64,000 bases of DNA from Chlamydiota bacterium. Its GTDB lineage: Bacteria > Auribacterota > JACPWU01. The translations under genes were made by a program, and so were the position numbers. The DNA lies in contig JACPWU010000002.1 in assembly GCA_016196885.1 (NCBI GenBank), positions 22,358-86,357 of the forward strand, written 5' to 3'. Below are positions 46,900-54,832 of this stretch, piece by piece; position 1 is the first letter of the stretch; every line of letters begins with the position of its first letter. The notes below the pieces were generated by a model that ran no database searches, had not been told where the DNA came from, and saw only the letters and a list, made by a program, of their open reading frames with translations.

Positions 46900-47834
46900 A
46901 AATTGTTTTTATGGGGACGCCGCACGTAGCGGCCCTGGCCTTGGAGGGGGTGGCAAGGCATTTTCCAATCACGGGGGTGGTGACTCAACCCGATCGGCCT
47001 CGAGGACGTGGGCTTCATGTTTTTCCCTCTCCTGTGAAGGAAATGGCCATTCGTTTGGGTCTTGCGGTTTTGGAACCCGTGAAAACAAGGGATCCCGTTT
47101 TTCTCGCAAATTTAAAAAGTTGGGCCCCTGATTTGATCGTGGTGGTGGCCTATGGTGGACTCTTGCCGCGCTCGGTTCTTGAAATTCCTTCCCTAGGTTG
47201 TGTGAACCTTCATTCTTCGCTTTTACCCAAATACCGCGGAGCGGCCCCGGTTCAATGGGCTTTTTTAAATGTGGAAAAGGAAACAGGATGGACCACTTTT
47301 TATCTTTCAGAGGGGATGGATTCTGGGGACATGATTCTTCAGAAAAAAATGTGGGTGCAACCTGAGGATGATGCCGCTTCTTTTTTTGAAAGGATGATTC
47401 CGTCAGGAATTGAATTGTTAAAAGAAACGATTCAGCAGGTTTTAAATGGAAGGGCGCCGCGCATCCCCCAAAATCATAGGGAGGCGACCCTCGCGCCTAA
47501 ATTAAGCAAGGCCGACGGAAAAATAGATTGGAATCAGTCGGCTGTTTCCCTTTGGAATCGGGTTCGCGGGCTTCTCCCCTGGCCTGTGGCCTTTACCTCC
47601 TTTGAATGGAAAGGGAAGTTGCATGAGTTACGCATTTTTAAGGCATCTGTCGAAACGGGAAAATCACCTGCGCCGGGTAAGATCTTAGAAATTCGTTTGG
47701 ATGGATTTTTGGTAGGGACGGGTCGGGATGCTTTATGGATTCAAGAAGTTCAGAAAGAAGGTTCTCGCCGGATGAGCGCGGAAGAATTTTTGAGAGGGCA
47801 TGCGATTGCGGTCGGGACTGTTTTAGGGAAATAA
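46899..47834 (+). CDS. fmt: Methionyl-tRNA formyltransferase
   Basis: Start at ATG 46899, overlapping the upstream TGA (MKIVFMGTP). HSSLLPKYRGAAPVQWA signature. Confidence 0.9.
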   Translation, partial: KIVFMGTPHVAALALEGVARHFPITGVVTQPDRPRGRGLHVFPSPVKEMAIRLGLAVLEPVKTRDPVFLANLKSWAPDLIVVVAYGGLLPRSVLEIPSLGCVNLHSSLLPKYRGAAPVQWAFLNVEKETGWTTFYLSEGMDSGDMILQKKMWVQPEDDAASFFERMIPSGIELLKETIQQVLNGRAPRIPQNHREATLAPKLSKADGKIDWNQSAVSLWNRVRGLLPWPVAFTSFEWKGKLHELRIFKASVETGKSPAPGKILEIRLDGFLVGTGRDALWIQEVQKEGSRRMSAEEFLRGHAIAVGTVLGK

Positions 47835-47940
47835 AACAAATTTCCAATAACAAATGTCAAATTAATTTCCAATTCTCCAATGACCCATTGGGGATTGGAG
47901 CATGGGTCATTCATTTGATATTTGTTATTGGAAATTGGTT
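47835..47940. repeat. CCAATGACC...GGGTCATTCATTTG element, copy 2
   Basis: tccaatgacccattggggattggagcatgggtcattcatttgatatttgttattggaaattgg, after the fmt stop. Confidence 0.55.
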
Positions 47941-47946
47941 ATTTCT

Positions 47947-48487
47947 ATGAGTCCTCGTGACGCTGCCTTTCACGCCCTTCAAAATTGGGAAAAGAAATCT
48001 TTGCCTATCTCTTACACCCTCGAGCCCTATTTTTTAAAGGCGAGTGAAGAAGATTTTTGAGAACATGAGGCGGTTGGGAATCAAAATGATTCTACCGATG
48101 GTGGCGGATGCGACGAAGATCAAAAATCTTTTTAAAATTCCTTTTGACCGCATTTTGGTAGATGTCCCGTGTTCTAATTGCGGAGTTTTTGCTAAAAGGG
48201 TCGAGGCCCGCTGACGGTTTTCTATGAAAGAAGTCAAGCGCTTGGCTGCGTTACAGATTCAAATTTTAAAAGAGGCGCTTCGGCTTCTAAAGTCAGGGGG
48301 GATTTTGGTGTATTCTACGTGCAGCATTGATCCTATCGAAAATGAGGAAGTGGTTCGAGCTTCCTTGAAAGACCAAGCTCAATTCCAGCTCACCGATGAA
48401 AAAACAATATTTCAAACTCTTCAGCAGGCGGGGGGCTATTGGGCAAAGATAAGACTTTCCCTTGACAAGGGCGCTTTCCTAATTTAG
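47947..48487 (+). pseudogene. rsmB: 16S rRNA m5C967 methyltransferase remnant with large internal deletions, a frame break and an in-frame TGA
   Basis: Pieces in order: NusB-like N-terminus MSPRDAAFHALQNWEK; FDRILVDVPCSNCGVFAKRVEAR-TGA-RFSM...; C-terminal GGILVYSTCSIDPIENEEVV. The TGA aligns with the conserved Trp of DAPCSxTGVxRRHPDIKW. Canonical def-fmt-rsmB synteny. Confidence 0.6.
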
Positions 48488-48518
48488 ATTGAGTCTCAAT
48501 TAAACCCAGGAGTGTCAG

Positions 48519-49925
48519 ATGTTTGAATCGTTCATTATTACCTTGAGAGAAGGGATTGAGGCCTCCCTGGTGATCGGCATCCTTTTGGGGATTTTGAAAA
48601 AAATCTCGAGGGAGGACCTCGTTCGCTTCGTTTACGGGGGTGTGGGGGCCGCGGTCGTGGCCAGTGGCCTGGGGGCTCTTTTCCTCCAATCCTTTGTCAT
48701 CAATGAAGAGGTGTATGAAGGGACCCTTTACCTTGTCGCCGCTTTTTTTGTGATCACCATGCTTTGTTGGATGCGCCGGCATGCCAGAACATTAAAGGGA
48801 GAAATTGAAACGGCTGTTCATCACATGACAGGTGGAGCCCAGAAAAAAGGAGAGGCCTGGGGAATTTTTGCCTTCACCTTTTTCATGGTTTTTCGGGAAG
48901 GGGTTGAGACGGTTCTTTTTTTAAGTGCCGTGGGTCTTACCACGCAAAAGCTTTTGTCTTTTATCGCAGGACTGTTGGGTCTGGTGCTGGCCGTTCTTTT
49001 CTGCGTGGCTTTTGTGAAGGGGACCCTGCGGATTGATTTGGGGAGATTTTTCCGGGTGAGCACCGCCGTTTTATGGATTTTTGTTTTTCAATTGTGGGTC
49101 AATGGTTTTCACGAATTGTCCGAAGCTCAAATTTTACCTGCCAGTCAAAGGGAGATGGCCCTTGTAGGACCTTTGGTTAGAAACAATGCCTTTTTTATTT
49201 TGGCCATTCTGGCGATTCCCATTTTTATTTTTTTATTCTCTGCTCGGAAAAGGGAAAATTTACCCGATGAAATGTCAGGCCCTGAACGCAGACTGGCGTT
49301 GTCCAAGGCGAAAAGTGAAAGGCGCTGGCGTTTCAGTTGGTCGGCTGTCTCTTTTTTGATTCTTCTGTCTTTGGGGGCGCATACCGTTTATTCCAATCGG
49401 TCTGAAAAAATAGACCCTCCCCTTCTCGTAGAAAGCCAAGGCGGCTCGATTAAAATTCCTCTTTCTGAAGTAAATGATGGAAGGCTTCATCGGTTTGGCT
49501 TGAATGTTGGGGAAGGCATGGTTCGTTTTCTTGTCATTAAAACCAGCGATGATCGTTATCGAACAGCCTTTGATCTTTGCGAAATCTGTGGAGATTATGG
49601 CTATCGCCAAGAAGGTGAGAATATTATTTGTCTCAATTGTACGGCGGCCATCCATCCTCCGACAATGGGTGTGGCAGGGGGATGCAATCCCATTCCTTTA
49701 CAATCGTGGGTCGAGGGAGGGGAGCTTTTGGTTAAAGAGACAGATTTAAAAGTGTTTCAAGATCATTTCAAAATGAAGGTGCTACCGGAAGTGACGTGCA
49801 CCCTTTGTCACATGAAATTACATTTTGAAGAGGCAAAAGAAATAAAGGCGAAGGGAAAAACTTTTTATCTTTGTCCGATGGAATCTTGCCAAAAAGAATT
49901 TGAGAAACGGTATTTGAATTATTAA
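48519..49925 (+). CDS. FTR1/EfeU-family iron permease fused to a C-terminal Cys-rich (DUF2318-like) domain
   Basis: Two REGxE motifs (TLREGIEASL, VFREGVETVL) in the TM helices. C-terminal 200 aa with CEICGDYGY...CLNCTAAIHPP...GGCNPIP...CTLCHMKLH...CPMESC. Confidence 0.7.
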   Translation: MFESFIITLREGIEASLVIGILLGILKKISREDLVRFVYGGVGAAVVASGLGALFLQSFVINEEVYEGTLYLVAAFFVITMLCWMRRHARTLKGEIETAVHHMTGGAQKKGEAWGIFAFTFFMVFREGVETVLFLSAVGLTTQKLLSFIAGLLGLVLAVLFCVAFVKGTLRIDLGRFFRVSTAVLWIFVFQLWVNGFHELSEAQILPASQREMALVGPLVRNNAFFILAILAIPIFIFLFSARKRENLPDEMSGPERRLALSKAKSERRWRFSWSAVSFLILLSLGAHTVYSNRSEKIDPPLLVESQGGSIKIPLSEVNDGRLHRFGLNVGEGMVRFLVIKTSDDRYRTAFDLCEICGDYGYRQEGENIICLNCTAAIHPPTMGVAGGCNPIPLQSWVEGGELLVKETDLKVFQDHFKMKVLPEVTCTLCHMKLHFEEAKEIKAKGKTFYLCPMESCQKEFEKRYLNY

Positions 49926-49964
49926 AAACTAATTTGGACGAAATTATTTTTAGAGACTTTTCCT

Positions 49965-51227
49965 ATGCTCTTACGAATCCTCAGTGAATCTTTCATGCGT
50001 CGCAAGCGGCGCAAAATACTGGGTGTTTTTGCCGTTTCCCTGGGCGCCAGCCTGGCGACGGCGGTGATTGGGATTTCCTTGGAAGTGGGAGATAAGGTGA
50101 GTCGTGAATTGAATGTTTATGGCTCGAATATCGTGGTTCATCCTTCGGATATTGTAGATGAAGAAGAGGGCCCCGTTCTGGGACAGCCCAGGCTCGACGA
50201 ATCGGACCTTCCCAAAATGAAAACGATTTTCTGGGGCAATAACATCATGGATTTTGCCCCTTTTCTTTTGAGCGAGGTTACCCTCAAGGGCGAGACAATT
50301 TCTATTGAAGGAACATGGTTCTCTAAAGAAATGAGTGTCCCAGATGGCCCATCCGTTAGAACGGGAGTCGAAACCCTTTTCCCTACCTGGCATGTGGAAG
50401 GGTCTTGGCCTCGAGATGATCAGGCCTTGAGAGAGGTGCTCGTAGGAAAAGAGATCGCGGCCCAGTTTAATATTCATCCTTCTCAAAAAATCACGATTGA
50501 GAAAAACGGAAAACCACTTGAGGTTTTAGCAACAGGAATTTTAAATTCGGGAGAGCAATACGATTCGAAAATTTTGGTGGATTTAGATTTGGCCCAAGGG
50601 CTCACTGGACTTCCTAAGGGAGTGGACCAAGTTTTCGTTCGAGCGCTCACCATTCCAGAAGATGATTTTCTGAAGCTTTACGCGCGTCATCCGCAGTCTC
50701 TTTCTCCTCAAGAGTATGAACGGTGGTCATGTTCCCCTTATGTCAGTACCGTTGCGGCTCAGCTTCAGGAGGCGATTGCGCATGCGGTTGCAGAGCCCAT
50801 TCTTGAAGTTTCTCAAAGAGAAGGGGTTTTGCTTAAAAAGCTCAAAGGACTTTTTATTTTTATTTGTGCAGTTGCTTTATTAGCCGCTGGAGTTGCTTTA
50901 ACCACTGTTTTAATGGCCACGGTGGTAGAAAGGCGTCAGGAGGTCGGGCTTTTAAGGGCTTTAGGCGCAGGCTCCAAAGATGTGGTTTTAATTTTTCTAT
51001 CTGAATTGGCTGTCATGGCCATCCTCGGATCTTTTTTGGGGGGGGCCTTAGGCTATGGATTGGGACAATGGATATCCTTTCATTTGTTTCACTCTTTTAT
51101 TCAACCTAATCCGATGGTTCTCTTTATTGTTGCGGGAGTGACATTGACCATCTCTCTTATGGGAGGCCTTTTCCCTATACGATTTGCCCTCAAAGTAGAC
51201 CCTGTGAGAGTCTTGCATGAAATTTAA
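49965..51227 (+). CDS. ABC transporter permease, FtsX/MacB-type (N-terminal TM, periplasmic domain, C-terminal FtsX 3-TM)
   Basis: C-terminal LRALGAGSKDVVLIFLSELAVMAILGSFLG FtsX-domain signature. Confidence 0.75.
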   Translation: MLLRILSESFMRRKRRKILGVFAVSLGASLATAVIGISLEVGDKVSRELNVYGSNIVVHPSDIVDEEEGPVLGQPRLDESDLPKMKTIFWGNNIMDFAPFLLSEVTLKGETISIEGTWFSKEMSVPDGPSVRTGVETLFPTWHVEGSWPRDDQALREVLVGKEIAAQFNIHPSQKITIEKNGKPLEVLATGILNSGEQYDSKILVDLDLAQGLTGLPKGVDQVFVRALTIPEDDFLKLYARHPQSLSPQEYERWSCSPYVSTVAAQLQEAIAHAVAEPILEVSQREGVLLKKLKGLFIFICAVALLAAGVALTTVLMATVVERRQEVGLLRALGAGSKDVVLIFLSELAVMAILGSFLGGALGYGLGQWISFHLFHSFIQPNPMVLFIVAGVTLTISLMGGLFPIRFALKVDPVRVLHEI

Positions 51228-52332
51228 AATGTTTTTAAAACTTTGTTTTGCTTCGATTTCTCATCAAAAGGGTAAATCAGCTTTGATGATGATTGTTTCT
51301 GTTATGGCCGTTGCGGTGACCACCAGTCTCTTGGGATTGATTTATGATGTTCGGCTTCAAATGCAAAAGGAACTCATGGCCTTTGGCCCTAATTTTAAAG
51401 TCCAACCTCAATGGAATACCATTGGCAACATGATTTCGTGGGCCCAGTACGACGAAATTGAAAAAATGTTTTTCAGGCCAGATGCAATTATTTGCCCTGT
51501 TTTAGCGGGTGTGGTGTTGTGGAAAGATCGCTCTCAATTAATAGAAGGCGTTTTATTAGATGCTTACCAAAAGATTTCCAAGCATTGGATAGTGGAAGGT
51601 ACATGGCCAAATAAGCCAGGAGAAGTTTTAGTGGGAGAAAAAGTCGCTCAGAAATTTCATTTAAAGTTGGGAGAGACTTTGACTTTTGATCAGTCCTCTC
51701 AAGCTTTTTTGATTCGAGGTTTTTTTCGATCAGGGACCCGAGAAGAAGAAAAAATAGTTTTCTCAATGAAAGGCGCGCAAAAAATTTTAAAAGAGGAAAA
51801 AAACTTTTCATTTGTTTTTGCCAGATTAAACAATTCTCTTCAGGAATTAGAAAATTTAAGCGAAAATATTGAAAAACATTTTCCTGATTTAAAGGCGGTT
51901 CCTATTCGAAGGGTTTCTTTGGCGGAGGGAGCGATTCTAGATCGTATTGGCAGTTTAGTGGGATGGGTGAATATCCTGATTTTGATGGTTGCTGCGTTGG
52001 CTTTGATGGCGACTTCAACAGTTTTGGTGGATGAGCGCCGTGAAGAGTTTGGCTTGCAGCGGGCCTTGGGAGCAAGTCCCGCTCAATTGATGCGGCTTTT
52101 TTACATGGAAACTTTTTTGAGTGCCTTCATCGTTTCACCCCTTGGTTTTTTACTAGGATTCTGGGGGCTAAAAATATTGGCTTATGAGGTTTTTTCGGCT
52201 CAAGCGACTTTTCGGTGGGAAATGGTTCCTGTGATTTTGATTGTTTTAATGGTTGTCATTCTTCTAGGAGAGAGTGTGGCTGTGAGAAGAATTGCGACCC
52301 TTGAGCCGGCGATGGTTTTAAAAGGGGAGTAA
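51217..52332 (+). CDS. ABC transporter permease, FtsX/MacB-type (second copy)
   Basis: C-terminal QRALGASPAQLMRLFYMETFLSAFIVSPLGF. Overlaps the upstream gene by 11 nt. Confidence 0.75.
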   Translation: MKFKMFLKLCFASISHQKGKSALMMIVSVMAVAVTTSLLGLIYDVRLQMQKELMAFGPNFKVQPQWNTIGNMISWAQYDEIEKMFFRPDAIICPVLAGVVLWKDRSQLIEGVLLDAYQKISKHWIVEGTWPNKPGEVLVGEKVAQKFHLKLGETLTFDQSSQAFLIRGFFRSGTREEEKIVFSMKGAQKILKEEKNFSFVFARLNNSLQELENLSENIEKHFPDLKAVPIRRVSLAEGAILDRIGSLVGWVNILILMVAALALMATSTVLVDERREEFGLQRALGASPAQLMRLFYMETFLSAFIVSPLGFLLGFWGLKILAYEVFSAQATFRWEMVPVILIVLMVVILLGESVAVRRIATLEPAMVLKGE

Positions 52333-52370
52333 ATGAGTAAAGGACGATGGACGATGGAAGATGGACGAAG

Positions 52371-53444
52371 ATGAGCAGCCTTATTCAAGCAAAAAATTTA
52401 ACGCGTCGTTATAGTGACCATGTCATGGCCCTCGATCATGTAGATTTAACAGTTGAACGAGGTGAATGGCTTGCCATGATGGGGCCTTCTGGGTCTGGGA
52501 AGACGACCTTGCTGAATTTATTGGGTTGTTTGGATCGTCCCACGGAGGGAGAAATTTTCTTTGAAAATCGTTTGATCAGTACTTTCAGTGCTCAAGAGTT
52601 GAATCGCTTTCGCCGCGAAAATGTAGGGATCGTTTTTCAGCAATTTCATTTGATTGGTTATTTGACGGCCCTGGAAAATGTAATGTTGGCTCAGTATTAT
52701 CACAGCATGGTCGATCGTGAGGAGGCAAAGCGTGCCCTAGAGGATGTCGGATTGGGTGAGCGGATTCATCATTATCCGTCACAACTTTCGGGAGGGGAGC
52801 AACAGCGGGTTTGCGTGGCCCGGGCCTTGATTAATCAGCCTAAATTGATTTTGGCAGATGAACCTACAGGAAATTTGGACGAGAAAAGCGAAGAGACGGT
52901 GCTGGATCTTTTTCGGCGTTTGCACGCAAAGGGACACACTATTTTAATGGTCACGCATGACGTGACCGTTGGAAAAATGGCGGATCGTCAACTGCAATTG
53001 GAACACGGAAGAATAGCAGGATCTTATTTAAGTCCCCTTCAAGCAGAGGAGGATATTGAGAATTTTCTCAAGCGCTTATGGGAATTACGTGAAGAGGGTA
53101 AGCTTTCGTATGACTATTTGCAGAAAAATAATTTTTTGGATCATGCGGGTGTTTTGAAATACATGCAGGCCAAAGAACTTTTGGAAGTGAAAGATCGAAA
53201 AATCTATTTTACTTCAGCAGGTGAGCTTCGTATGAGAGATATCATTCGTCGCCACCGGCTGGCCGAAATACTTTTTTCTAAAGCTTTACACATGGATAAA
53301 GAAGAGTCGGCTGTTGAGGCCTGTCAATTTGAGCACATGCTCAATCCCGATATCACAGAAAGAATCTGTACTTTTTTTCATCATCCAAAGAAATGTCCTC
53401 ATGGGAAGGAAATTCCTGGAGGGAAATGCTGTGAAAGACCGTAG
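52371..53444 (+). CDS. ABC ATPase (LolD/MacB-like) fused in frame to a C-terminal DtxR/MntR-like metalloregulator module
   Basis: Walker A GPSGSGKTTL, signature LSGGEQQRV, Walker B ILADEPT. Then LWELREEGK...RRHRLAEILF...EACQFEHMLNPDITERICTFFHHPKKCPHGKEIP, matching DtxR-family dimerisation/metal-site motifs (RRHRL, EH, CPHGxxIP). Confidence 0.7.
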   Translation: MSSLIQAKNLTRRYSDHVMALDHVDLTVERGEWLAMMGPSGSGKTTLLNLLGCLDRPTEGEIFFENRLISTFSAQELNRFRRENVGIVFQQFHLIGYLTALENVMLAQYYHSMVDREEAKRALEDVGLGERIHHYPSQLSGGEQQRVCVARALINQPKLILADEPTGNLDEKSEETVLDLFRRLHAKGHTILMVTHDVTVGKMADRQLQLEHGRIAGSYLSPLQAEEDIENFLKRLWELREEGKLSYDYLQKNNFLDHAGVLKYMQAKELLEVKDRKIYFTSAGELRMRDIIRRHRLAEILFSKALHMDKEESAVEACQFEHMLNPDITERICTFFHHPKKCPHGKEIPGGKCCERP

Positions 53445-53449
53445 CTCGT

Positions 53450-53528
53450 CTTTCGTCGTTCGTCTTCCGTTTATAAGCAAGAAGTTAGTAACGGACGACG
53501 AACAACTAACGAAGAACGACGAACAAAA
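53450..53528. repeat. Word hairpin CGTCGTTCG / CGAACGACG (related to the GTACTTCG family)
   Basis: gtagctcgtctttcgtcgttcgtcttccg...cggacgacgaacaactaacgaagaacgacgaac, between the ABC gene and hemL. Confidence 0.5.
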
Positions 53529-53554
53529 ATTGTTCAAAAGAAAAACAGGTTGTT

Positions 53555-54832
53555 ATGAACCCCTATCATGGCTTATGGCTTAAGGCTCAAGAATTAATGC
53601 CCGGCGGTGTCAACAGTCCCGTACGGGCTTTTAAGTCTGTGGGGCTTGATCCGCTGATTGTTTCCAAAGCCAAGGGTTCCAAAATTTATGATGTTCGAGG
53701 CAAGGCCTATTTGGATTTGGTCATGTCCTGGGGACCTTTGATTTTAGGGCATGCGCATCCTGAGATTTTGAAAGCAGTAAAAGAGGCTTTGGAGGAGGGG
53801 TCTAGCTTTGGTGCCTTGTCTCATCGCGAAATTCTCTTGGCTGAGGCGATTTGTAACGCGCTGCCTTCCCTTGAAAAAATCCGTTTTGTCAGTTCGGGAA
53901 CAGAAGCGGCCATGACAGCCATTCGTTTGGCGCGGGCTTTTACTGGAAGGGATAAAATGATCAAGTTCGAAGGTTGCTATCACGGCCATTCCGATTTTCT
54001 TTTGGCCAAGGCGGGCTCTGGCCTTGCGACTTACAGTCTCGCAGGAAGCGCGGGGATTCCTAAAGAGGTTTTGAAATCTACGCTTGTTCTGCCATTCAAT
54101 GATTGGGTGGCTCTTGAAAAAACAATGAATCGCTTCGGTCGTGAAATCGCCTGTATTTTGGTAGAACCCATTCCCGCCAACATGGGCTTGGTGTTTCCCG
54201 AAAAGGATATGCTTAAGACCTTAAGAAAAATGTGTACGCAAAAAGGAATCCTTTTAATCTTTGACGAAGTGATCACAGGTTTTCGAGTCGGATACGGAGG
54301 CGCACAAGAGCTTTATCACGTTCAACCTGATTTAACTATTTTAGGGAAAATCATTGGCGGCGGATTTCCCGTGGGTGCTGTCGGTGGGCGTAAAGAAATC
54401 ATGGATCAATTGGCACCTTTGGGACCCGTGTATCAAGCAGGAACCCTTTCTGGAAATCCGGTGGCCATGGCTGCGGGATTAAAAACTTTGGAAATTCTGA
54501 AGAGAAAAGGCGCTTATGAAAAACTTGAAAAGCTGGGCGCAACTCTTGCTGGTGGTCTCGAAGAAATATTAAAGAAGAAAAAAATTTCCTTTCAGCTCCA
54601 TCGCATCGGCTCCATGATGACTCTCTTTTTTAATGATCGGCCGATTGAGAATTATCAGGATGTATTACAATGTAATACAGAAAAATTTAATCAATTCTTT
54701 AGAGAGATGTTTCGAAAAAGAATTTTCCTTCCTCCCTCTGCCTTTGAAACCTGGTTTTTGAGCTTGAGCCACTCTGCTCAAGACATCGAGAGCTTCTTAA
54801 AGGCAGCTGACCAGACGTTCAAGGCTTATTAA
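53555..54832 (+). CDS. hemL: Glutamate-1-semialdehyde 2,1-aminomutase
   Basis: LMPGGVNSPVRAF, FDEVITGFRVGYGGAQE, GKIIGGGFPVGA (PLP-Lys). Confidence 0.9.
   Translation: MNPYHGLWLKAQELMPGGVNSPVRAFKSVGLDPLIVSKAKGSKIYDVRGKAYLDLVMSWGPLILGHAHPEILKAVKEALEEGSSFGALSHREILLAEAICNALPSLEKIRFVSSGTEAAMTAIRLARAFTGRDKMIKFEGCYHGHSDFLLAKAGSGLATYSLAGSAGIPKEVLKSTLVLPFNDWVALEKTMNRFGREIACILVEPIPANMGLVFPEKDMLKTLRKMCTQKGILLIFDEVITGFRVGYGGAQELYHVQPDLTILGKIIGGGFPVGAVGGRKEIMDQLAPLGPVYQAGTLSGNPVAMAAGLKTLEILKRKGAYEKLEKLGATLAGGLEEILKKKKISFQLHRIGSMMTLFFNDRPIENYQDVLQCNTEKFNQFFREMFRKRIFLPPSAFETWFLSLSHSAQDIESFLKAADQTFKAY

Follow-up and report, generated by a model that had tools for sequence, protein, structure and literature searches.

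The gene at 52371-53444 (+) of the window (the whole 64-kb stretch of DNA analysed here) encodes an ABC ATPase joined in frame to a DtxR-like module, and this fusion is genuine. Of the readings considered, control of the ATPase by metal has the best support. We further consider it an even chance, judging from sequence, predicted structure and analogy, that the DtxR-fold module acts in cis as an iron sensor which feedback-inhibits the ATPase of an FTR1-type uptake machine: the module has lost the hallmarks of DNA binding, so that cellular iron would most likely switch the pump off directly.

Conservation of the in-frame fusion

Counted from the first ATG, the fusion ORF extends over 52347..53444 (+) and 365 aa. 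The start at 52371 is preferred because the homologues, and an identical protein in the database (P0001), begin at the corresponding position; the resulting product is 357 aa long and begins MSSLIQ. In this protein, Pfam recovers ABC_tran at aa 21-166 (E 4e-35) and Fe_dep_repr_C (PF02742) at aa 281-349 (E 2.9e-22, profile positions 1-69 of 70), both within one ORF, in line with the initial annotation, which had proposed an in-frame fusion of a LolD/MacB-type ATPase to a DtxR-family module. Its statement that neither a stop nor an internal start separates the two parts was borne out as well. The frame is open throughout, with zero stop codons at the junction, and no methionine occurs between M203 and M265, so that an internal start could not give the whole DtxR-like module; a separate regulator produced from such a start is thus ruled out. 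All the motifs that had been quoted for the module were recovered: RRHRL (aa 293-297), FEH (aa 320-322) and CPHGKEIP (aa 342-349).

At the protein level, at least 120 clusters, the best-matching ones, all have the combination PF00005+PF02742 and a length of about 355 aa. Related genome loci were collected with a 6-sequence C-terminal alignment, and the ABC and DtxR-like parts share one frame in 61 of 61 fused loci. The hosts are metagenome-assembled genomes (MAGs) of Acidobacteriota, Planctomycetota, Chlamydiae-like bacteria and others, and the closest named homologue comes from a Chlamydiae MAG. The idea that a missed stop or frameshift has merged adjacent genes for an ATPase and a small DtxR-family regulator, for which nothing speaks beyond the prior suspicion that MAG-type sequence attracts, is refuted by the recurrence of the same fusion, in length and frame, in these independent clusters and loci from different studies and phyla, and the AF2 model, in which secondary structure runs unbroken over the junction, also speaks against it; its probability is practically nil. 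Being widespread in MAGs of several phyla, the architecture is not the unusual one it had been taken for. Matches in the representative library with other architectures are truncated ABC fusions or, in one case, a probable chimera (P0180). Our literature searches (Fe_dep_repr_C; DtxR+ATPase fusion; DtxR+FTR1) returned no description of an NBD+DtxR fusion, and a fold search with the full-length model gave matches to the nucleotide-binding domain (NBD) only, with no solved NBD+DtxR architecture.

The ATPase and its gene cassette

The N-terminal part of the protein (52371..53024, +; aa 1-218) is an NBD of the MacB/LolD/MJ0796 type, as judged from Pfam, motifs and predicted structure. It possesses the Walker A (GPSGSGKT), Q-loop (FQQFHL), signature (LSGGEQQR), Walker B (LILADEPT, with the catalytic Glu), D-loop (NLD) and H-loop (VTHD) motifs, the columns of which are invariant or near-invariant among 55 homologues, suggesting that the protein is an active engine and not a relic. 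The predicted domain superimposes on the MacB NBD with a TM-score of 0.93 and an rmsd of 1.4 Å. The best NCBIfam matches, LolD (score 215.8, cut-off 307.75), FtsE (211.2, cut-off 264.85) and MacB (207.4, cut-off 966), all remain under the curated equivalog cut-offs; by sequence, the ATPase falls in the MacB/LolD/FtsE-like subgroup, yet is none of the three named proteins.

The fusion gene is the last of a conserved four-gene cassette (FTR1+DUF2318, FtsX, FtsX, ATPase), found identically organised in 47 of 47 loci with sufficient upstream sequence. The first gene (48519..49925, +) codes for a 468-aa FTR1-family iron permease fused to an FtrD-like/DUF2318 Cys-rich domain (Pfam FTR1 6.6e-33, FtrD-like 3.3e-28). 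Its best NCBIfam match is EfeU, under the cut-off; it carries two RExxE motifs (REGIE and REGVE) and the arrangement CxxC-x13-CxxC-x14-C, which is the DUF2318 motif (PMC6083913). Two different FtsX-type ABC permeases follow, one of 420 aa (49965..51227, +; Pfam FtsX 3.3e-17) and one of 371 aa with a MacB-like periplasmic core (51217..52332, +; FtsX 1.3e-17, MacB_PCD 2.8e-10), and the ATPase gene is the only one of its kind beside them. This context suggests that the ATPase powers a MacB-type mechanotransducer which aids the FTR1 permease, rather than being the iron channel itself.

In its gene content, the cassette is a compact, P19-less relative of the Campylobacter FetMP-FetABCD system. Like FetMP-FetABCDEF (cFtr1-P19, cj1658-cj1665; C. 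jejuni and UPEC), it combines an FTR1 permease, a DUF2318 Cys-rich membrane protein (FetA), two FtsX-type permeases (FetB, FetC) and a MacB/LolD-type ATPase (FetD). It differs in that FTR1 and DUF2318 form one fused protein and in that P19/FetP and the thioredoxins FetE/F are missing, none of these genes lying in or adjoining the cassette, either in the window or according to the gene tables for L001, L003 and L004. Moreover, the cassette ATPase bears the DtxR-like domain, which is not mentioned for FetD in PMC10783030 and PMC6083913. All of the shared components are needed by C. jejuni to grow under iron limitation (PMC10783030, PMC6083913), and what the FetBCD-type ABC module does in FTR1/P19 systems is considered an open question (PMC10783030).

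Putative metal sites and degenerate DNA-binding domain of the DtxR-like module

The distal part of the module is a DtxR domain-2-like metal-binding/dimerisation segment with a Cys-rich tail (53214..53441, +; aa 282-357), defined by the PF02742 match (2.9e-22) and by invariant columns; PF02742 is matched in 24 of 24 members of the fusion family. The identities of DtxR-family ligands are established (PMC4805248, PMC9253540): those of the primary site are M10, C102, E105 and H106 in DtxR (D8, E99, E102 and H103 in MntR), and those of the second site in SloR/MtsR are H76, E80, C123 and H125 (PMC9253540). Candidate ligands for both sites are present in the fusion. For site A these are C318/E321/H322, which correspond to DtxR C102/E105/H106 and are invariant among the 55 homologues, and the M10/D8 equivalent is the variable N231, with an acidic residue mostly one position earlier. 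For site B, H295/E299/C342/H344 correspond to H79(H76)/E83(E80)/C123/H125; E299, C342 and H344 are invariant and H295 is found in at least 90% of the members. The RRHRLAE helix is shared with the DtxR family, and the interdomain pair E241/R296 (DtxR E20/R80) is invariant. Beyond the canonical sites, C333, H338, C353 and C354 are invariant too, which brings five invariant cysteines (C318, C333, C342, C353 and C354, the last two forming a terminal CC pair) into 40 residues. The additional cysteines could hold structural Zn or an Fe-S cluster instead of taking part in Fe2+ sensing.

The proximal part (53034..53213, +; aa 222-281) resembles DtxR domain 1 in its AF2 secondary structure (alpha1, a short alpha2, alpha3 and a beta-wing) and by fold match, with W237 and E241 invariant. 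The C-terminal 140 aa are modelled with a pLDDT of 91.5 and match two-domain IdeR/DtxR structures, domain 1 included, with TM-scores of 0.77-0.81 over 127-135 columns. However, PF01325 was not detected in the window protein at E<=0.1 or in any of 24 fusion members at E<=1, while the positive controls were readily matched (DtxR 3.7e-20, MntR 5.8e-27), and generic wHTH profiles stayed silent in the 24 fusions; in 8 of 8 stand-alone relatives, neither these profiles nor PF01325 gave a match. Pairwise identity over aa 242-281 is 0.22, versus 0.64 in the NBD and 0.56-0.69 elsewhere in the module, so the HTH part is the least conserved region of the protein, and in a positional alignment the DtxR base-contact positions S37/P39/Q43 are occupied by N/F/A. 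The net charge of the HTH region varies from -6 to +6 across the family, a range that is uninformative since DtxR and MntR themselves are near neutral. The initial annotation had described the DtxR module as complete; this holds for the predicted fold, but not for the winged helix, which is the fastest-evolving part and lacks DNA-binding sequence signatures, and among the Pfam families it had named, PF00005 and PF02742 were found but PF01325 was not.

Judging from the model, the winged-helix fold has most likely been kept, although its DNA-binding sequence signature is lost; a fold predicted with such confidence would also fit DNA binding through a divergent recognition surface. Predicted helix alpha1 begins 2-3 residues past the last NBD strand, leaving no linker for release of the module; the model leaves uncertain how the NBD and the sensor are oriented to each other (pTM 0.60).

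In comparison with DtxR, IdeR, MntR, SloR and MtsR, the module shares the predicted fold of domains 1 and 2 (TM about 0.8), the site ligands C102/E105/H106 and H79(H76)/E83(E80)/C123/H125, the RRHRLAE helix and the E20/R80 pair, but has no PF01325 match, is short of about 5 residues around alpha2, lacks the SH3/FeoA third domain, adds the invariant C333, H338, C353 and C354, and carries a 220-aa ATPase on its N-terminal side.

Stand-alone relatives next to FeoB

The nearest relatives of the module are stand-alone Cys-rich DtxR-like+FeoA proteins of 216-240 aa and about 40% identity, encoded in L021, L047, L065, L068, L075, L084 and other loci. They share the CxF..HP..CPHG..IP.G.CC motif and a degenerate HTH with the fusion, and a rough NJ tree places the fused domains beside them as a single clade; they are separate proteins, which have a FeoA domain instead of the NBD. 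In all 5 loci tested, their gene comes immediately downstream of feoB and is the only FeoA-like sequence detected. Upstream of the same feoB, L021 and L065 also encode a canonical PF01325+PF02742 repressor. One may speculate, with somewhat less than even confidence, that a clade of DtxR-fold proteins gave up DNA binding to become transporter-tethered iron sensors, and that these have been employed at least twice, fused to the ATPase and attached through FeoA to FeoB.

Transcription of the cassette

The best sigma-70-type match within 47800-53700 (TTGACA-17-TAGATT, 10/12) is a promoter-like site before the cassette (48462..48490, +), a position consistent with a single operon from 48519 to 53444. 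A perfect 13-bp palindrome, ATTGAGTCTCAAT, lies at 48488..48500 and overlaps the -10 hexamer; 18 bp separate it from the first start codon. This candidate operator has no other exact match within the window and is unlike the DtxR or Fur consensus; it was not found in the closest relative, L001 (74% identical).

The ATPase gene itself is bordered by repeats. Three overlapping GACGAWG-type 7-nt repeats were located by repeat search in the short spacer before it (52343..52368, +), and 6 of 6 matches to GACGAWGRACGA in the window flank the gene, versus 0.8 expected by chance. Right after its stop codon, GACGA-type repeats form a long imperfect hairpin with 37-nt arms (53446..53519, +; RNA fold -36.3 kcal/mol, z = -4.4), which is likely the operon end or an mRNA-stability element.

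Among 54 cassette upstream regions, no meaningful enrichment of the canonical Fur, DtxR/IdeR or MntR box consensus was seen. De novo search revealed that the cassettes of Acidobacteriota are preceded by AGTTGCAACT-N-AGTTGCAACT (written out, AGTTGCAACTNAGTTGCAACT), an operator that remains unchanged among clades with completely different alpha3 helices. The exact 21-mer also occurs in metagenomes ahead of FUR-family genes, TonB-dependent receptors and a family of secreted proteins; of 80 such loci in total, 42 are away from the cassette. Fur-family genes abut the cassette in L001 (identified by Pfam) and in L005-L007, L009, L049 and L056 (identified by C-terminal sequence), while neither a fur nor another dtxR gene occurs in the 64-kb window; a weak MntR match at 34.8 kb proved to be enolase. 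The operator common to cassette, fur genes and TonB-dependent receptors makes it probable that the cassette is under the transcriptional control of a Fur-type regulator in Acidobacteriota, a lineage other than that of the window, a conclusion not strictly incompatible with the fusion protein being the regulator of this regulon.

Proposed mechanism and its precedents

In the scheme that follows, we infer that the module binds metal and which metal this is, that it dimerises, that its effect is to inhibit and not to activate, and that it works as a lever. Instead of reading DNA, the C-terminal module would sense metal in the cytoplasm, most likely Fe2+, as a built-in part of the ATPase. Its DtxR-type dimerisation domain would hold two ATPase chains together beneath the NBD dimer. 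Imported iron would then fill sites A and B, the latter possibly completed by the C353/C354 tail, and re-orient domain 1 against domain 2 as in DtxR activation. This movement might be relayed by helix alpha1, joined nearly without a linker to the last NBD strand, to the NBDs, where closure or ATP hydrolysis would be restrained and uptake throttled within seconds, a trans-inhibition like that of MetNI and ModBC. Transcription of the cassette would be left to a separate regulator, in Acidobacteriota probably Fur.

The precedent lies in dimerising ligand-binding domains at the NBD C-terminus that block ATP hydrolysis (PMC10710835). In MetNI, through its C2 domain, and in ModBC of M. acetivorans, the C-terminal domain dimerises under the NBD pair, and bound substrate parts the NBDs and stops ATP hydrolysis (PMC10710835). 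The fusion is topologically the same, with an extra domain on the NBD C-terminus in the same order, its ability to dimerise being deduced from PF02742 membership. It differs in its regulatory fold (DtxR domains 1 and 2, versus ACT-like or TOBE), in its ABC class (a type VII mechanotransducer of the MacB/FtsX kind, whereas MetNI and ModBC are type I importers) and in that the sensed ion would enter by a separate permease, FTR1. The trans-inhibited ABC systems known to us are type I importers, and we know of no MacB-type (type VII) example.

Alternative explanations

The DtxR-like module might instead be a transcription factor tethered to the transporter which, when iron is replete, binds an operator of the cassette, while attached or after proteolytic release, and represses its own operon. 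Such an arrangement exists in C. trachomatis YtgCR (CT069), where a DtxR-family repressor at the C-terminus of a metal-uptake ABC subunit is released by cleavage, and similar permease fusions are reported from 11 phyla (PMC5599777). The Chlamydiae origin of the closest named homologue, in keeping with the chlamydia-related lineage of YtgCR, the full two-domain fold predicted with its wHTH, the palindrome over the -10 of the cassette promoter and a window devoid of fur or other dtxR genes would all suit this possibility. Nevertheless, YtgCR has a permease as fusion partner, not an ATPase, and belongs to a TroA/Ytg-type cluster A-I system, not to an FTR1-based cassette, and the fusion has neither a DNA-binding signature nor a linker or evident cleavage site. 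No member examined matches PF01325, which readily detects the controls, or other wHTH profiles, the HTH region is the least conserved, the palindrome was not found in L001, and DtxR-box-like sequence is not enriched upstream of the cassettes. The acidobacterial operator stays constant over unrelated alpha3 helices and its regulon includes fur itself. In DtxR-operator structures, the N-terminus of alpha1 is close to the DNA, so that a directly attached NBD should clash with it. We thus regard a tethered repressor as unlikely. Much the same evidence disfavours the suggestion of the initial annotation that the ATPase moonlights as a regulator: the HTH is degenerate, no linker is present, the acidobacterial cassette operator is shared with fur genes, several loci have fur genes beside the cassette, and the feoB clusters of the sister clade also encode canonical DtxR repressors.

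A purely structural role appears improbable to the same degree. Here the DtxR-like domain, with structural Zn in its Cys/His-rich motif, would pair the ATPases under a heterodimeric FtsX without conveying any signal. PF02742 is indeed a dimerisation domain, MntR, ScaR and PgMntR dimerise without metal (PMC4805248), C333, H338, C353 and C354 would suit a structural Zn site, and two different permease genes are combined with one ATPase gene. However, the NBDs of MacB, LolCDE and FtsEX function without such a domain. The invariance or near-invariance of candidate ligands in both regulatory metal sites, and that of the E20/R80-type pair, goes beyond what dimerisation alone needs. That the same module is also tied to FeoB, an iron importer unrelated to the first, suggests that the signal has to do with iron.

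More doubtful still is a module that senses Fe-S status or oxidative stress for the ATPase, with C318, C333, C342, C353 and C354 holding an Fe-S cluster or reversible disulfides. FeoC of the Feo system carries an Fe-S cluster on a winged helix. The five invariant cysteines within 40 residues, with their terminal CC, are absent from DtxR/IdeR. In the cassette, the DUF2318 domain of the partner protein also shows an Fe-S-like Cys pattern (PMC6083913). Conversely, C342/H344 and C318 map to ordinary mononuclear sites of the DtxR family. The spacing of the cysteines fits no Fe-S motif known to us.

Implications of the proposed iron-sensing ATPase

Surplus Fe2+ is toxic and iron import must therefore stop fast, while the control of bacterial iron uptake known to us is almost entirely transcriptional (Fur, DtxR). 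If the ATPase is indeed inhibited by its own iron sensor, the latter would represent a fast, protein-level brake on iron import, and ATP turnover would be the regulated step of the FetBCD-type module. No trans-inhibition module would have been known before on an ABC system of the MacB type, and a transcription-factor fold would have been exapted as an allosteric transporter switch. The occurrence of the same module beside FeoB suggests a general strategy, in which the ATPase-fused and the FeoB-linked modules would both exert direct post-translational feedback on iron import. Regulon predictions from genomes could miscount the fusion as a DtxR repressor, and the family is hidden by automated annotation, under which its members appear as 'ATP-binding cassette domain-containing protein'.

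Architecture and distribution of the fusion

The in-frame fusion of an ABC ATPase to a DtxR-like module proposed in the initial annotation is real: a single unbroken ORF (window 52347..53444, plus strand) carries Pfam matches to both ABC_tran (PF00005; aa 21-166, E 4e-35) and Fe_dep_repr_C (PF02742; aa 281-349, E 2.9e-22), whereas PF01325, the DtxR N-terminal DNA-binding domain also expected there, was not found. Its 357-aa product from the second ATG (52371) matches database protein P0001 exactly and aligns collinearly with every homologue. The fusion is confirmed by the motifs RRHRL, FEH and CPHGKEIP, all present as claimed, by the lack of a stop codon between the two parts and by the absence of any methionine between M203 and M265. 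LolD, FtsE and MacB are the nearest NCBIfam models for the N-terminal 216 aa; every equivalog cut-off is missed, and the ATPase is none of these proteins proper.

PF00005 and PF02742 occur together in each of the best 120 clusters from a collection of 5.8 billion proteins; these share 50-74% identity with the query, are 346-387 aa long (except for one 320-aa fragment) and bear the names of Chlamydiae, Acidobacteria, Planctomycetes and Latescibacteria MAGs. When one genome per GTDB species was scanned for a peptide pattern of the C-terminal part, 97 places were confirmed; the 80 kept all come from uncultured organisms. Both parts share one frame in 61 of the 80, and the remaining 19 encode stand-alone proteins. 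Being found in at least 120 clusters and 61 genome loci, the architecture is not rare, although it had been called unusual for this ATPase family, and the same recurrence rules out an assembly artefact. The clusters are labelled 'ATP-binding cassette domain-containing protein' and no more, and we found no account of the architecture in the searchable literature. The family is widespread, unstudied and mechanistically suggestive.

Fold and metal ligands of the C-terminal module

The last 141 aa align with residues ~8-136 of IdeR/DtxR, corresponding to domains 1 and 2 (phmmer against PDB sequences, E 6e-12). From an alignment of 24 C-terminal-domain sequences, AlphaFold2 predicted (pLDDT 91.5, pTM 0.85) the order alpha1, short alpha2, alpha3, two-stranded wing and alpha4 to alpha6. 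Since Foldseek matched two-domain IdeR, DtxR, DR2539 and SloR (TM 0.72-0.81 over 127-135 columns), the module, initially described as complete, is indeed whole in the predicted fold of domains 1 and 2, but it lacks the PF01325 signature and the third, SH3/FeoA domain. In the full-length model, only 2-3 residues separate the last strand of the nucleotide-binding domain (NBD) from helix alpha1; a fold search with this model found no solved structure combining an NBD with a DtxR-like module.

Ligand conservation was read from 55 homologues. C318, E321 and H322, corresponding to the primary-site residues C102, E105 and H106 of DtxR (PMC4805248), are invariant, as are E299, C342 and H344, which together with H295 (conserved in at least 90%) are equivalent to H76/E80/C123/H125, site 1 in SloR and MtsR (PMC9253540). 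The equivalents of DtxR E20 and R80 (E241 and R296) are also invariant, and the ligand position equivalent to M10/D8 is not conserved. Unlike DtxR, the fusion homologues possess four further invariant residues, C333, H338, C353 and C354.

The winged helix

Neither PF01325 nor any generic winged helix-turn-helix (wHTH) profile matched any of 24 fusion members at E<=1; the controls DtxR and MntR matched PF01325 at 4e-20 and 6e-27, together with several MarR/HTH models. Mean pairwise identity drops from 0.64 in the NBD and 0.44 in alpha1 to 0.22 across alpha2, alpha3 and the wing, and rises to 0.56 in alpha4-alpha6 and 0.69 in the Cys-rich tail. About five residues are lost around alpha2, and in the window protein N, F and A stand at the positions that correspond, counted from conserved anchors, to the base-contacting S37, P39 and Q43 of DtxR/IdeR. 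Judged by its sequence, the segment does not qualify as a DtxR-family DNA-binding domain. The predicted fold is nevertheless kept, suggesting that the domain still has some job.

The iron-transport cassette

The fusion gene (52371-53444) is the fourth and last of a cassette that comprises, by Pfam, an FTR1 permease fused to an FtrD-like/DUF2318 domain (48519-49925), an FtsX permease (49965-51227) and a MacB_PCD+FtsX permease (51217-52332). The FTR1 permease has both RExxE motifs, and its Cys-rich domain carries CxxC-x13-CxxC-x14-C, the exact DUF2318 motif of Cj1660/FetA (PMC6083913). With a promoter-like site in front (10/12; 48462-48490) and a strong hairpin after the ATPase stop codon, the four genes look like one operon. 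Their order is kept in three distant relatives with gene tables and in all 47 fused genome loci whose upstream sequence extends to 4.6 kb or more.

The cassette is a compact relative of Campylobacter jejuni fetMP-fetABCDEF, in which FetA (DUF2318), the permeases FetB/C and the ATPase FetD are each required when iron is limiting, no biochemical role having been assigned to them (PMC10783030). It differs in lacking P19/FetP and the thioredoxins, and in the DtxR-like extension of its ATPase, of which there is no mention for FetD in PMC10783030 or PMC6083913.

The gene 5' of the cassette (47948-48487) seems to be what is left of an RsmB/Sun-type rRNA methyltransferase: ~540 bp hold a short ORF for the N-terminus and one of 87 aa for the C-terminus (YSTCSIDPIENEEVV), whereas a full gene should encode ~430 aa. 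It may be a pseudogene, and its 3' end contains the cassette promoter. Lineage-specific repeats bracket the fusion gene, both in the window (52343-52368 and 53446-53519) and in its 74%-identical relative L001 (7871-7995 and 9069-9200). All six window matches to GACGAWGRACGA flank the gene (0.8 expected), and the downstream copies fold into a hairpin (-36 kcal/mol, z = -4.4); in L001 an unrelated, AT-rich element of ~125 nt stands on both sides of the orthologous gene, as direct copies. Such repeats may act in mRNA processing or stability and so set the dosage of the ATPase, or they may be left over from an exchange of the cassette.

Transcriptional control

In Acidobacteriota, the -10 hexamer is followed by an operator, AGTTGCAACT-N-AGTTGCAACT (alternatively read as AGTTG-N11-CAACT), placed 10-60 bp 5' of the FTR1 start codon (L011, L014-L017, L022-L061 and others). 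We know of no prior description of it. In 1.05 Mb, near-matches to its 17-mer number 35 beside FTR1 starts and 13 elsewhere. The operator is unchanged in clades with unrelated alpha3 helices (VDPVRTLGRMAD vs VQWRKLINTMAG), a constancy not easily squared with its being read by these helices.

A metagenome scan with the exact 21-mer operator hit 105 stretches, and 80 of them (L085-L164) were retained. The 21-mer precedes the cassette in 38, with a fused ATPase in all seven having enough room, and lies elsewhere in 42, where its neighbours include a ~288-aa secreted protein family without Pfam match (16 loci), FUR-family genes (PF01475, 5.6e-25; six loci and one weaker match) and TonB-dependent receptors; in several loci the FUR-family and ~288-aa genes are divergently transcribed. 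Being common to fur, TonB receptors and the iron permease, the operator is probably the Fur box of that phylum. A fur gene also lies directly 5' of the cassette in L001 (Pfam), as do fur-family genes, by C-terminal sequence, in L005-L007, L009, L049 and L056. We infer, from Acidobacteriota rather than the phylum of the window, that a Fur regulon would account for cassette transcription without DNA binding by the fusion protein. The window itself has a candidate operator, a perfect 13-bp palindrome (48488-48500) that overlaps the -10 hexamer and is not present in L001; no fur/dtxR homologues were found elsewhere in its 64 kb.

Bryobacteraceae-type loci (e.g. L033, L036, L052, L060, L074) carry a second conserved palindrome, CGGACC-ATTTT-GGTCCG or variants, ~45-70 bp before the FTR1 start, around position -35 and 5' of the TTGCAACTGAGTTGC operator, which suggests that another regulator acts on this promoter too. 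An operator-like 17-mer, TTGAAACTGGGTTGCAA (2-3 mismatches), recurs within the FTR1 coding sequence always at exactly +286 (L033, L036, L051-L053, L055, L060, L067, L069, L071, L077); this could be either chance in the coding sequence or an operator inside the gene. The clade with NRATFLLMAQEEL-type helices has operator-like repeats ~120 nt upstream (L004 3950-4016; L062 5' of FTR1) and a GC-rich, hairpin-forming leader before the start codon (e.g. GAGAGGTCCTCCC...GAGACCTCCCGGG), a possible 5'-UTR element.

A possible iron sensor on the ATPase

The most likely function of the module, to which we would give even odds, is that of an iron sensor acting in cis on the ATPase. In MetN and ModC, a C-terminal domain dimerises under the NBDs, and bound transported substrate props these apart and stops ATP hydrolysis (PMC10710835). 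Such trans-inhibition is the known analogy for the fusion, which would be regulated in a mode similar to MetNI/ModBC but with DtxR parts as building material: domain 2 would be the dimerising unit of the ATPase pair, and domain 1, its first helix continuous with the NBD, the lever, the wHTH being kept as a mechanical element instead of a DNA reader. DtxR itself is activated by metal-dependent re-orientation of domain 1.

The module might instead be a repressor, tethered or cleaved, as in YtgCR, which provides a precedent (PMC5599777); we consider this unlikely. It is also improbable that the module is purely structural, serving dimerisation or holding Zn, and an Fe-S or thiol redox sensor built on the five invariant cysteines seems very doubtful.

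The stand-alone sister clade

The stand-alone proteins (19 of the 80 kept genome loci) are 216-240 aa long, longer or spurious start calls aside, and share the pattern of the fusion (LWxLxE ... RRHRLAE ... CxF.GHP..CPHG..IP.G.CC), followed by a FeoA domain; PF01325 is absent from all eight inspected. Against a library of 1.84 billion representatives, the C-terminal module gave 1714 matches at E<=1e-3 and 334 at E<=1e-10, the best being mostly of stand-alone size. A rough NJ tree places the 65 fused domains in one clade, with a single stand-alone sequence inside, which suggests one fusion event from the sister-clade lineage.

FeoB is encoded directly upstream of the stand-alone protein in all five cases tested, and the FeoA domain of that protein was the only FeoA-like sequence detected in these operons. 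In L021 (3364-6712) and L065 (4302-7654), a canonical DtxR/MntR repressor (PF01325 at 1e-17 and 7e-14, plus PF02742) lies upstream of feoB and the divergent, Cys-rich protein downstream; the presence of a normal repressor in the same cluster speaks for another role of the Cys-rich protein, plausibly that of a FeoA-type FeoB partner carrying a metal sensor. Similar feoB clusters occur in L047, L068 (where the upstream regulator is of ArsR type instead), L075 and L084, and in the Nitrospirota-type loci L019, L025 and L058 the protein follows a radical-SAM gene. One protein of the representative library, P0180 (428 aa), joins transketolase pyrimidine-binding and C-terminal domains to the Cys-rich DtxR-like+FeoA module; it is probably a chimera due to gene calling or a frameshift.
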